Shown piece by piece: positions 15,207 through 20,599 of a stretch of 64,000 nt of DNA (position 1 is the first letter of the stretch; every line of letters starts with the position of its first letter). A model generated the notes under the pieces. It did no database searches, was not told the DNA's origin, and saw nothing but the letters and a program-made list of their open reading frames with translations. The stretch is from Escherichia coli (GTDB lineage: Bacteria > Pseudomonadota > Gammaproteobacteria > Enterobacterales > Enterobacteriaceae): NCBI RefSeq assembly GCF_013122565.1, contig NZ_CP053258.1. One strand, written 5' to 3'. The position numbers were made by a program, and so were the translations under genes.

Positions 15207-15244
15207 CTGACGGATGCGAACGGGCATCCGTCAGTCCTTTCTCT
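15207..15244 (+). terminator. Intrinsic terminator after grxD
   Basis: 11-bp perfect stem CTGACGGATGC/GCATCCGTCAG with 6-nt loop, followed by TCCTTTCTCT. Confidence 0.55.
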
Positions 15245-18200
15245 ATCCCCAATCCAGCCCTTGTGGCGAACTTGAAAATCCCGCTTCACGCAGCAGCGTA
15301 AACATCGGCGTTTGCCGGACCGGTAGATCATTCACTTCTGTTAGCGTAAAGCGCAGCCGTGGTTCGCGACGCAGTGCGGTAGTCAGCGCCTGGAAAATCT
15401 CTGGGGCGAGTAATTCCTCTTTTTCCTGCCAGACCAGCATTTTTTTGCCGCCTTGCGCCAGATAGAGTAACAATTTGCCGCCAGAAACGACCACCAGCGC
15501 ACCCGCCCGACGCGTTGGAACCAGCGTTGCCGGATGTGCAGGCCAGGGCAGAAGATTTCCCCACACATTAGCCGGATCGTTGGCAGAGAGCGCCACTGGT
15601 GTATAGTGGCGCGTTTGCGTGGCTTGTGTCGCCAGATCGCGCAATCGGTCAATAGTCAGACGTTCAGCGAATTGCGCGCCACCCAGACCTTCTACAAAAC
15701 GACCTCGCATAATTCGCCCGGAGTCTTCCATACTTCGACAAAGCGTTTGCATCGATGGAAACCCGCCAGGGATATTTTCGGCTATCACCGCCTGACGACT
15801 GATGATGCCGTAGCGGTCGAGCATATTTTCCGCCAGCGCCAGCATCCTTTCGGTATCGTTTAGTGGCTCCACCTGCAATAACGACCAGCGTCCAGCCAGA
15901 TTTGGTGTATTGTAAGATACCCGCGGCGAGACGGGTTGTGCATAGACAGGACGCCCACGACGAGCCCGGTGACTGCGGCGAGTTGAGGTGCGTGCGTTGG
16001 AACTGCTGCGGGTGAGGGCGCGTAACGGTGCCCAAATATCGCTGGTGATGACGCCTTGCCAGACCAGCGCCCATAACGCCTCTTGCAGTGCCGAGGGATC
16101 AACCGATTCGCCGATTTTATCGCGTATCCGTTGGCTGATTTGTTGTGCAAACCAGGCTCCTCCGTCAGCCAGAACCTCGACTATCGCTTGCTGCAGCGCC
16201 GAACGATTCGCCTGATCCGCTTCGGCGGGAGTGAACGATTCTGCGGCATATTCCTGTAGATGCAGTGCCACCAGGCCGTCATCTTCACCCAGCTTTTTTT
16301 GTCCCGACCAGATAACCGCTCCGGTTGCCAGTAATTCATCGAGCATTTCTGGCGAATAGTCGCGTACGCGGGCAGGCAGGATCTGGCTTTCCCAGAGTGA
16401 GGCGGGTAAACCGACTCCGGCAAGCTGTTCGATCACCCGCATCACGCCATCTACGCCCTCATAAACGCCTGGCGATGTTGAGGCAAAGAGCGCCGGGCTA
16501 CCATCGGTGGCGGGTAATACGCCCTGCTGTTCCAGCAGCAATCGCGCATAGGTCGTGGCCGCAACGGGACGCGTCGCTTCTCTGGCAGCTTGCAGCGAGC
16601 GCAAACGCAGACGATGAAATACCTCATCGCTCACCCAGATGTCTTGTTGCAGATTCATCACCAGACCCTGTTCGCGCAGTTGCTGAAGTTGCTCTTCGAC
16701 AATGGCAATACCGAGACTAAACTCATGAGCCAGTTGTTCAGCCGTGACCAGAGCATGAGCCCGGAGATAGCGCAGAAAGAGGTCGCGAAGCGGGTAACTG
16801 ACTCTATGCAAATAAATCTCTGGCAGAGACTCTGGTAGTTGTACGCCGAGGGCATCGCGCAGCCTGGCAGCATCATCCATACAGGCAAGACGCTCCTGTC
16901 CGCTAATCATCGCCGGGAAGATTCGTTTTACTGTAAGAAGATTTTCCAGATACGACGCAATCTCTTCACTGCTGCCTGTATGCCGTTGCGCCAGGTCTTC
17001 AACGGTCATTGGCCCCAGTTCGCGCAGCAGGTCGAACAATCCTTCTTCACCTTTCGCTCTTCTGCCAGGAGCCAGTCGTTGCAACTCTTCTTCCACCTGG
17101 CGAATGACCTGCGGGTCGAGTAATTCCCCCGGATCGACCTGTCCGAGTAGATTGCGCAGTAACTCGCTGTCCAGCGACAGTACGGATGCCCGGCGCTCTG
17201 CCAGCGGGGCGTCGCTCTGGTACATAAATTCCGCGACATAGCCGAACAATAAACTTGTGGCGAAAGGCGAGGGAGTAGTGGTCGTTACATCGGAAATTTG
17301 AATTTCGCCACCGTTCAGGCGACGCATCAAACGTTCCAGTGCGGGAAGATCATAAACATCTTGCAGACATTCGCGTAGGGTTTCGAGAATGACCGGAAAA
17401 TCCGGATATCCCTGAGCGATTTCCAGCAACTGACTGGCGCGCAGCCGTTGTTGCCAGAGCGGGGTGCGATGGCCCGGCGTGCGGCCCGGCATTAATAATG
17501 CCCGCGCGGCGCATTCGCGAAAACGGGCGGCGAAAAGTGCCGAGCTGCCTACCGCCTCGCGGACAATTTGCAGCAACTTTTCTGGTTCAAACAAAAAAAT
17601 CGCGGCGTCGGGCAATTTACCATCAGTGTCAGGAATGCGCGCAACAATGCCGTCATCACTGGCGACCACAGACGCGTCAGCGCCCCATAGGGCATGTATT
17701 CGCCCGGCAATCGCCAGCGCCCAGGGTTCATGCACCCGTCTTCCATAGGGAGAGTGCAAAATAATACGCCAGTCGCCAATTTCATCACGGCACCGTTCGA
17801 GGACCAGATGGCGACTCCCCGGAACAATACCCGTCGCGTTGCGCTGCTCGTCAATCAACCCCTGAATATTGGCGATCGTATTTTCTTCTGCCAGCCACGG
17901 GGGAATAGTCCCGGAAAAGAACGCGCCATCCGCCAGTAAATGAAGAAAATCGCCGATCATCTCGCCTAATTCAGCCGGACGTCCGTTACCTTCACCACGC
18001 CAGAAGGGGAGCCGGGCAGAACGACCCGGAGCAGGAGTCACAATCACCTGATCGCGGGTGATTTGCTGGATCCGCCATGAAGTAGCGCCGAGAGTGATAA
18101 TGTCGTTCACCCGCGACTCATATACCATCTCCTCATCCAGTTCACCCACCCGCCGCGAACCGGCCTGTTCTTCACCTTCGGGTAATAACACGCTATACAT

Positions 18201-19859: not shown

Positions 19860-19951
19860 TAACGCTATTCCCCGTGAATATCATGCATGATGCGTGGAAT
19901 AGCCTCACTATAGATGCCTGAATCATTGCATGTCATCAGGCATCGACTCGA

Positions 19952-20599
19952 TTACACCTCTTCGGCGGCAGGTAGCGGCCAGCCTCCCAGACGTTTCCAG
20001 CGGTTGACGATTTCACAAAACAGCACAGCAGTGCGTTCGGTGTCGTACAGCGCGGAGTGCGCCTGGGTGCTGTCGAAGTCCATGCCAGCGGTCTGGCAAG
20101 CCTTTGACAATACGGTTTGTCCGAGTGCCAGCCCGGCCAGTGCAGCAGTGTCAAAAGTGGCGAAAGGGTGGAACGGGTTACGTTTCAGTGAGGCGCGTTC
20201 AGCGGCGGCCATCATAAAGCTGTGATCGAAATTGGCGTTGTGTGCCACCATAATGGCGCGGTTACAGCCGCTCGCTTTAATACCTTTACGTACAACTTTA
20301 AAAATTTCGTGCAGCGCCTCGTATTCGCTGACCGCGCCGCGATCGGGATCGTTCGGGTCAATGCCGTTGAAGGCGAGGGCCTCTGGCTGCAAATTTGCGC
20401 CGACAAATGGTTCGACGTGGAAATGTAATGTGGTGTCCGGCATCAGCCAGCCTTGTTCATCCATTTTCAGGGTGATGGCGGCAATCTCAAGCAGCGCATC
20501 GGTTTTGGCGTTAAATCCGGCTGTTTCAACATCGATCACAACAGGATAAAAACCACGAAAACGGTCGCACAGACCGGTAAGTTGAGCGTTATCGGACAT
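19952..20599 (-). CDS. rnt: ribonuclease T
   Basis: ORF track 215 aa; DEDDh exonuclease motifs (VVIDVETAG); upstream of lhr in the same orientation. Confidence 0.92.

Follow-up and report, generated by a model that had tools for sequence, protein, structure and literature searches.

The rnt-lhr operon of Escherichia coli: a lineage-restricted arrangement in which a mobile, dispensable repair gene probably captured the promoter of RNase T

In Escherichia coli, the gene of the large helicase Lhr lies directly behind rnt, the gene of the exonuclease RNase T, and the question that this arrangement raises is whether the two enzymes work together or only share a transcript. We addressed it in a stretch of 64,000 nucleotides of E. 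coli DNA (assembly GCF_013122565.1, contig NZ_CP053258.1), hereafter the window. Both genes are on the minus strand, where rnt occupies 19952..20599 (ATG to TAA, 215 residues; a DEDDh 3'-5' exonuclease) and lhr occupies 15243..19859 (ATG to TAG, 1538 residues; Lhr helicase/glycosylase), and an unusually conserved spacer of 92 bp at 19860..19951 separates them. Taken all together, the locus is very probably the known rnt-lhr transcription unit of E. coli, in which Lhr is independent of RNase T and in which the promoter of rnt was captured by a mobile, dispensable repair gene.

The first-pass annotation, made from the letters of this DNA, had named the two genes, placed them in one operon, and presented the arrangement as the pairing of a 3' exonuclease with a helicase. 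Its reading frame limits were exact, although the strand was left unstated, and the tight same-strand layout with the 92-bp gap was confirmed from the list of open reading frames and the spacer sequence. The gene identities were borne out by equivalog scores far above chance: Lhr matched NCBIfam NF007284 (PRK09751) with 3400 bits against a cutoff of 1496, covering model positions 1-1538, and RNase T matched TIGR01298 with 382.9 bits against a cutoff of 246.2, as well as Pfam RNase_T. All DEDDh catalytic residues of RNase T are present (D23, E25, D125, H181, and D186). No intrinsic terminator was found within the spacer by a simple terminator scan, so that the two genes show the layout of an operon, with the same strand, a short spacer, and no intrinsic terminator between them. 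Co-transcription of rnt and lhr was reported by Reuven et al. 1995, as that work is cited in PMC8301817. With an 8-kb query, the region was present in 5,425 of 5,426 complete E. coli genomes, with nemA, gloA, rnt, lhr, grxD, and mepH annotated, and the gene order in E. coli genomes of this neighbourhood is nemR-nemA-gloA-rnt-lhr, converging on grxD, with mepH beyond.

To see how far the adjacency extends, we scanned species-representative genomes with the C-terminal domain (CTD) of Lhr, obtained at least 80 Lhr loci, and tested their neighbours by tblastn. Among the matches listed, rnt, gloA, and grxD lay beside lhr in 2 of 80 loci, both from Escherichia, and were missing from the other 78. 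In the literature, bacterial lhr is described as often found with rnt (PMC7437997), and the long form of Lhr is described as having no conserved neighbourhood (PMC8301817). In a protein database clustered at 90%, the relatives of Lhr fall off in steps, from E. coli (99%), Escherichia sp. (95%), E. albertii (89%), and a lineage denoted as L093 (77%), through Citrobacter amalonaticus/farmeri, Phytobacter, and E. fergusonii (73-75%, with Phytobacter at 73%), to Brenneria, Pseudomonas, Xanthomonas, Rhizobium, Variovorax, and Yersinia (about 60%, with Yersinia at 59%). No Lhr from Salmonella, Klebsiella, or Enterobacter was found among the best 120 relatives in this database. The synteny nemR-nemA-gloA-rnt-lhr|grxD was present in C. 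amalonaticus, E. fergusonii, and the 77%-identical lineage, and lhr of Phytobacter and Yersinia lies in unrelated gene contexts. In a reciprocal test that started from RNase T orthologues, nemR-nemA-gloA-rnt|grxD without lhr was found in Salmonella, Cronobacter, Entomohabitans, and another abundant enterobacterium; in these lhr-less loci the gap between rnt and grxD is 28-68 bp and holds one classic bidirectional terminator, for example aaaaaagcgacccgaaggtcgctttttt. Among the loci covered, adjacency of rnt and lhr in distant taxa, which marks a conserved functional pair, was not found. As such, the pairing of an exonuclease with a helicase holds as an arrangement, but the significance implied for it is weakened by the restriction of the adjacency to a few lineages and by the frequent loss of lhr, with rnt kept in the one deletion genome that was inspected.

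The neighbour that recurs beside lhr is of another kind. Among the 76 loci outside Escherichia whose downstream sequence was long enough, a gene of the Fpg/Nei family (nei2-type) lay directly downstream of lhr in 58, almost all of them actinobacterial, and within about 1 kb of lhr in 8 more, while none was found downstream of lhr in the proteobacterial loci among the 76. An lhr-nei2 operon is on record for mycobacteria (PMC9841417), in agreement with this arrangement, and the operon partner of lhr in Mycobacterium smegmatis is accordingly the Fpg/Nei glycosylase Nei2, in contrast with RNase T in E. coli. Since the deeply conserved partner of lhr is an Fpg/Nei-family gene, its adjacency to rnt is no evidence for cooperation between Lhr and RNase T. 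An lhr-Fpg/Nei pair was also observed in a genome labelled Sporosarcina beigongshangi (L074), whose Lhr similarity (55% in the core and 38% in the CTD) is like that of the actinobacterial loci ranked next to it; its lhr may have arrived by horizontal transfer, or the contig may be a contaminant of this Firmicute assembly.

Within E. coli, lhr has been lost on a large scale. One identical deletion junction in lhr was found in 1,040 of 5,425 complete genomes (about 19%), and the reading frame of 1538 residues is intact in about 81%. The deletion spans 4,388 bp, as determined from the spacing between rnt and grxD (4,759 bp against 371 bp), and leaves 229 nt of lhr out of frame (2501-2729 in the deletion genome L002). 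It runs between direct repeats that match at 8 of 9 positions, whose copies were placed in the window by the junction strings; both are on the minus strand within lhr, the upstream copy, TCGCAAACC, at 19749..19757 and the downstream copy, TCGCGAACC, at 15361..15369. Among the genomes with this deletion are the type strain ATCC 11775, an O25b:H4-ST131 strain, and S88, all of the B2 phylogroup, and rnt was intact in S88, the one deletion genome that was inspected. A table in Touchon et al. 2009 (PMC2617782) already lists lhr as absent from B2 strains; we found no published description of the junction or its microhomology. Other lesions were seen in a type-strain draft of E. albertii (L006, NBRC 107761), where W595 in ATSWRIQQ is a stop codon (TGG to TGA), and in Shigella, where shorter Lhr clusters have 1449 and 1243 residues. 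The W595 codon is either a premature stop or a sequencing error; other E. albertii Lhr (1541 residues) is intact.

Where lhr is kept, its substitution pattern is that of a constrained gene. We compared synonymous (dS) and nonsynonymous (dN) divergence with L005, a divergent genome labelled E. coli. The dS of lhr as a whole was 0.44, similar to that of the neighbouring genes, and its dN/dS was 0.091, with the core lower (dS 0.49, dN/dS 0.054) than the CTD (dS 0.37, dN/dS 0.158). For the neighbours, dN/dS was 0.009 in rnt (dS 0.23), 0.014 in nemA (dS 0.51), and 0 in gloA and grxD (dS 0.21-0.26). The lhr ratio against E. albertii was 0.069, and the overall range was 0.07-0.12. On these rates, lhr is under purifying selection that is 5-10 times more relaxed than that on its neighbours.

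We then considered how transcription passes from rnt to lhr. Directly 3' of the rnt stop codon, the spacer forms a hairpin (19913..19944, minus strand), which is supported by folding and covariation, with the arms GATGCCTGA and TCAGGCATC around a loop of 14 nt and with no U-tract. A segment of 44 nt containing it folds with -14.6 kcal/mol (z = -2.3) and is modestly stable, while the fold of the whole spacer, taken as 111 nt, was not significant (z = -1.3). In L093, where the spacer is also 92 bp, two compensating substitutions have turned one G-C pair of the stem into A-T, so that pairing is maintained. C. amalonaticus carries a different but similar hairpin, GCCTGATAA...TTATCAGGC, at the same position, with GCCTGA...TCAGGC arms; the GCCTGA...TCAGGC arms of the hairpin at 19913..19944 appear to resemble repetitive extragenic palindromic (REP)-type palindromes. 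The spacer differs at 3 positions in L005 and 5 in E. albertii, with a flanking-gene dS of 0.2-0.5. Because the hairpin lacks the U-tract of a terminator, transcription that starts at the rnt promoter can continue into lhr. From one covarying pair, we infer that the hairpin may stabilise the 3' end of rnt or act as a partial attenuator that sets the ratio of rnt to lhr. No RNA family was matched in or near the spacer in Rfam, either in the window at gathering thresholds or in 19700-20800 at E values up to 1. A second palindrome in the spacer, ATCATGCATGAT, was rejected as a functional element, as K-12, S88, and E. albertii carry disrupted versions of it. On the other side of rnt, the gloA-rnt spacer (20600..20701, minus strand) contains a GC-rich, terminator-like hairpin after gloA (20693..20671) with a weak T-tail, followed 5' of rnt by an extended -10-like element, TGTCATAAT (20642..20634), which was read directly off the sequence. 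This suggests that rnt has its own candidate promoter, with possible read-through from nemRA-gloA.

The same spacer allows a different account, in which lhr would be transcribed mainly from its own promoter, the hairpin would end most rnt transcripts, and the two genes would be effectively independent. The candidate internal promoter is a sigma-70-like match, ATGACA-18-TATAGT (19907..19936, minus strand), which agrees with the consensus at 10 of 12 positions, lies 48 nt before the lhr start codon, and overlaps the hairpin. Its hexamers are unchanged in the window, a K-12-like strain, L005, and E. albertii, and the -10-like element still matches at 5 of 6 positions in L093. However, promoter-like matches in the region occur at the level expected by chance (6 found, 6.4 expected), and the -35-like hexamer, which lies in the hairpin loop, diverged with that loop in L093. 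As the stem was kept by compensation while the -35-like hexamer diverged, a structural role of the hairpin is favoured over a -35 element. The absence of a U-tract and the co-transcription reported in the literature also speak against separate transcription, and we regard this account as unlikely. An independent lhr promoter, which would contradict the operon proposed in the first-pass annotation, is represented in the spacer by this one site, with a consensus match at chance frequency.

It could also be argued that rnt and lhr belong together in function, as a genuine module in which Lhr translocates 3'-5' and unwinds DNA or excises uracil, RNase T trims the 3' single-strand ends or flaps, and co-transcription matches the amounts of both. 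The reported co-transcription fits such a module, as do the processing of structured DNA 3' ends by RNase T in repair (PMC3942315), the citation of RNase T as a high-copy suppressor of ultraviolet sensitivity, and the review-type statement that lhr occurs with rnt (PMC7437997). The spacer is moreover conserved beyond synonymous sites, and rnt-lhr-grxD-mepH form one divergent block in E. fergusonii. Yet the adjacency is missing at 78 of the 80 Lhr loci among the matches listed and also in Phytobacter and Yersinia, rnt stands alone in Salmonella, Cronobacter, and Entomohabitans, and the deletion in 19% of E. coli genomes takes lhr and, in the one genome inspected, leaves rnt intact. Furthermore, the deeply conserved partner of lhr is the Fpg/Nei-family gene, and, according to PMC8301817, no interaction of RNase T and Lhr at the protein level is on record. 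A module of this kind seems to us decidedly improbable. The loss of lhr could be taken further, to the view that E. coli retains lhr only as a functionless relic in decay, whose position is irrelevant. The recurrent lesions (the B2-type deletion, the nonsense codon of E. albertii, and the shorter Shigella forms) and a dN/dS that is 5-10 times above that of the neighbouring genes would agree with decay, but the frame is intact in about 81% of genomes, a dN/dS of 0.07-0.12 clearly shows purifying selection, no catalytic motif is missing, and enzyme activities and delta-lhr phenotypes are published (PMC10953399, PMC8053096, PMC4357459). Selection and biochemical data together largely refute this view, which we give hardly any credence.

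The reading that we prefer is the capture of the rnt promoter by an independent, mobile lhr. Ancestrally, the enterobacterial layout would have had rnt and grxD facing each other, with a single bidirectional terminator between them. A horizontally mobile lhr may then have settled between rnt and grxD in Escherichia and a few Citrobacter-like lineages, and its arrival would have removed or replaced the rnt terminator and so captured rnt transcription. The conserved hairpin probably shields the 3' end of rnt and allows different expression levels of rnt and lhr. Lhr itself would act alone, without RNase T as an obligate partner, in the surveillance of oxidative damage and of damage linked to replication, and would be useful under certain conditions. 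The mobility of lhr is indicated by the Lhr proteins of Brenneria (Enterobacterales), Pseudomonas, Xanthomonas, and Variovorax (a betaproteobacterium), which share 83-86% mutual identity (P0237, P0238, P0239, and P0243); such identity across classes points to recent horizontal transfer of lhr among Proteobacteria. At the locus itself, a comparison of the window (13683-22923) with E. fergusonii (L086, 2942-12226) gave a dS of 0.06-0.14 for nemR, nemA, and gloA, 1.1-1.9 for rnt, grxD, and mepH, and above 1 for lhr, with a sharp step between gloA and rnt. The step implies a recombination breakpoint and, with it, the transfer of rnt-lhr-grxD-mepH as one block on at least one occasion, by import from a distant relative or the reverse.

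Several points weigh against this reading. The promoter-like match in the spacer offers lhr a start site of its own. Although the GC content of lhr (56.9%) is the highest locally, that at third codon positions (GC3, 0.56) is host-like, and neither GC nor GC3 gave a compositional sign of recent transfer of lhr. The synteny common to lineages with 70-78% identical Lhr would also fit an old presence of lhr followed by loss in Salmonella and others, and the CTD-based scan, which covered 600 pattern matches in representative genomes, leaves absence in any given genus unproven. Lastly, the conservation of the spacer together with the divergent block in E. fergusonii could mean that the pair has been selected as a unit.

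In the case of Lhr, the part that precedes the long C-terminal extension is a helicase core, encoded by 17169..19859 (minus strand, residues 1-897) and composed of RecA1, RecA2, WH1, and the DEAD_assoc domain. The superfamily-2 motifs that had been read from the sequence were found again, motif I (GSGKT) at residue 54 and motif II (DEVH) at residue 179, and motif VI (QRIGRAGH) at residue 411 belongs to the same DExH set. The Pfam domains of the core are DEAD (31-218), Helicase_C (349-417), WH_Lhr (446-616; PF19306, E 1.4e-47), and DEAD_assoc (679-867; PF08494, E 2.5e-62). When the sequence was compared with the PDB, the matches were 7lhl (1393 bits over residues 14-1479) and 5v9x (980 bits), both M. 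smegmatis Lhr. The core helicase domains are also common to the Lhr-Core and metallophosphoesterase (MPE)-ligase-associated helicases (TIGR04121 and PRK13767), which the window Lhr matched with 575 and 425 bits over about residues 352-883, below their equivalog cutoffs of 849 and 850; unlike the window Lhr, those proteins lack the CTD and are located in MPE/ligase operons. E. coli Lhr was shown to have ATPase, 3'-5' translocase, and helicase activity, and its CTD to consist of five winged helices and a beta-barrel and to form tetramers (Warren et al. 2021, PMC8053096). As these properties were published for the 98.8%-identical K-12 protein, the window Lhr is predicted by analogy to be an ATP-dependent 3'-5' translocase and helicase and to form a tetramer.

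The C-terminal extension comprises 641 residues after the core, encoded by 15246..17168 (minus strand, residues 898-1538), with tandem winged helices and a beta-barrel that are AlkZ/YcaQ-like. The first-pass annotation had proposed to examine this part for domains; when this was done with Pfam and a structure search, additional domains were found. The Pfam domains are WH2_Lhr (912-1016; PF23236), WH3_Lhr (1130-1206; PF23235), and WH4_Lhr (1334-1416; PF23234). An AlphaFold2 model of the CTD had a mean predicted local distance difference test (pLDDT) score of 88.3, and in a Foldseek search of the PDB it matched the cryo-electron microscopy structure of Lhr-CTD (7LHL, E 6e-38), followed by the interstrand-crosslink glycosylases AlkX/YcaQ (9ZD6, E 5e-7) and AlkZ (5UUJ, E 1e-5). 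Based on the domain and fold matches, the extension is a defined domain. The distal CTD has the same fold of three winged helices and a beta-barrel as AlkZ/YcaQ (AlkX), with a target template modelling (TM) score of about 0.6, but only 13% identity. Membership of the CTD in the AlkZ family was considered and rejected, because Pfam HTH_42 (PF06224) gave no hidden Markov model match in Lhr at E values up to 0.01 and the QxQ motif is lacking (PMC10953399). As judged from the model, the Lhr CTD has an AlkZ fold, yet it is outside the AlkZ family by sequence.

The uracil-DNA glycosylase activity of E. coli Lhr is abolished by D1536A (Buckley et al. 2023, PMC10953399). The same study notes that the protein is without the AlkZ QxQ motif and that delta-lhr is sensitive to hydrogen peroxide (H2O2) and azidothymidine (AZT), but not to mitomycin C; the first lhr phenotype was synergy with radA for AZT (Cooper et al. 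2015, PMC4357459). Accordingly, the statement in the first-pass annotation that the role of Lhr is incompletely defined is now true only in part, as helicase, tetramer, and uracil-DNA glycosylase activities and the H2O2 and AZT phenotypes are published. D1536 is present in the window Lhr, which ends in GLDWG from residue 1534 (codon at 15252-15254), so that the protein carries the reported catalytic Asp, and the glycosylase activity itself is predicted. The CTD was aligned with 25 distant homologues taken from a search with 3,283 relatives at E ≤1e-10. D1536 was conserved solely within the enterobacterial Lhr clade and is Asn in E. albertii; the equivalent residue is A, T, S, or Y in the clade of Pseudomonas, Xanthomonas, and Yersinia and R or V in most distant homologues. 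M. smegmatis Lhr (5V9X for the core, 7LHL for the CTD) has the same overall architecture, with about 47% identity overall and 36% in the CTD, and the same 3'-5' translocase and tetramer properties (PMC8053096), whereas its residue at this position is not Asp, and the reported phenotype of mycobacterial Lhr is sensitivity to crosslinkers rather than to H2O2 as in E. coli. Since the glycosylase Asp is confined to the enterobacterial clade, the activity would be recent and clade-specific. Tentatively, and with somewhat more doubt than confidence, we suggest that the rnt-lhr operon may be an evolutionary accident, in which lhr landed or was retained at the rnt|grxD terminator in the Escherichia/C. 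amalonaticus lineage, and that the uracil-glycosylase may be a recent innovation of this clade and not the ancestral role of the CTD.

On its downstream side, lhr converges with grxD (14845..15192, plus strand) across a 50-bp spacer, in which a hairpin with a 12-bp stem (15206..15235, not assigned to a strand) forms a terminator-like site at the 3' ends of both genes that is conserved in E. coli and E. albertii. Compared with Lhr of K-12 (b1653), the locus, flanking genes, length of 1538 residues, and D1536 are the same, and the differences are allelic only (lhr dN 0.006, dS 0.05); compared with the K-12-like strain, Lhr has 98.8% protein identity and the 92-bp spacer 1 difference. The exact Lhr protein is already recorded for E. 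coli as WP_171459334.1. The nucleotide identity of the window to the sampled complete E. coli genomes is 98.4-98.8%, and as none reaches 99%, the window comes from a less-sampled E. coli lineage. Between about 12900 and 43300, the window is dense in genes of redox and electrophile stress (sodB, grxD, gloA, nemA/nemR, sodC, gstA, nth, and rsxABCDGE), which is of note given the published sensitivity of delta-lhr to H2O2, although coincidence is possible. Elsewhere in the window, two Rfam matches reached gathering level: the enterobacterial small RNA STnc550 (11106-11496, plus strand, 396 bits), which spans the purR-cydH intergenic region and cydH, and the antisense RNA HPnc0260 (2233-2395, plus strand, 112 bits). 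On the opposite strand, the latter overlaps ydhR at its 3' end and also a tRNA-Val gene (2360-2433, minus strand), the first of a pair whose second member is at 2441-2514, likewise on the minus strand.

The locus, co-transcription, the helicase, the CTD fold, and the glycosylase activity are all already published, and our additions are minor: a synteny restricted to certain lineages, a conserved Fpg/Nei (nei2-type) partner, a D1536 confined to one clade, strains that naturally lack lhr, and a hairpin conserved in the spacer. Lineages of clinical importance, ST131 and ST95 (S88), are among the roughly one fifth of sequenced E. coli in which lhr is naturally null. This matters when repair phenotypes of K-12 are extended to pathogens, and the nulls are material for testing the role of Lhr in the tolerance of oxidative damage. 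The recurrent knock-outs in B2-type lineages, some Shigella, and the E. albertii type strain are ready-made isogenic tests of what Lhr is for.

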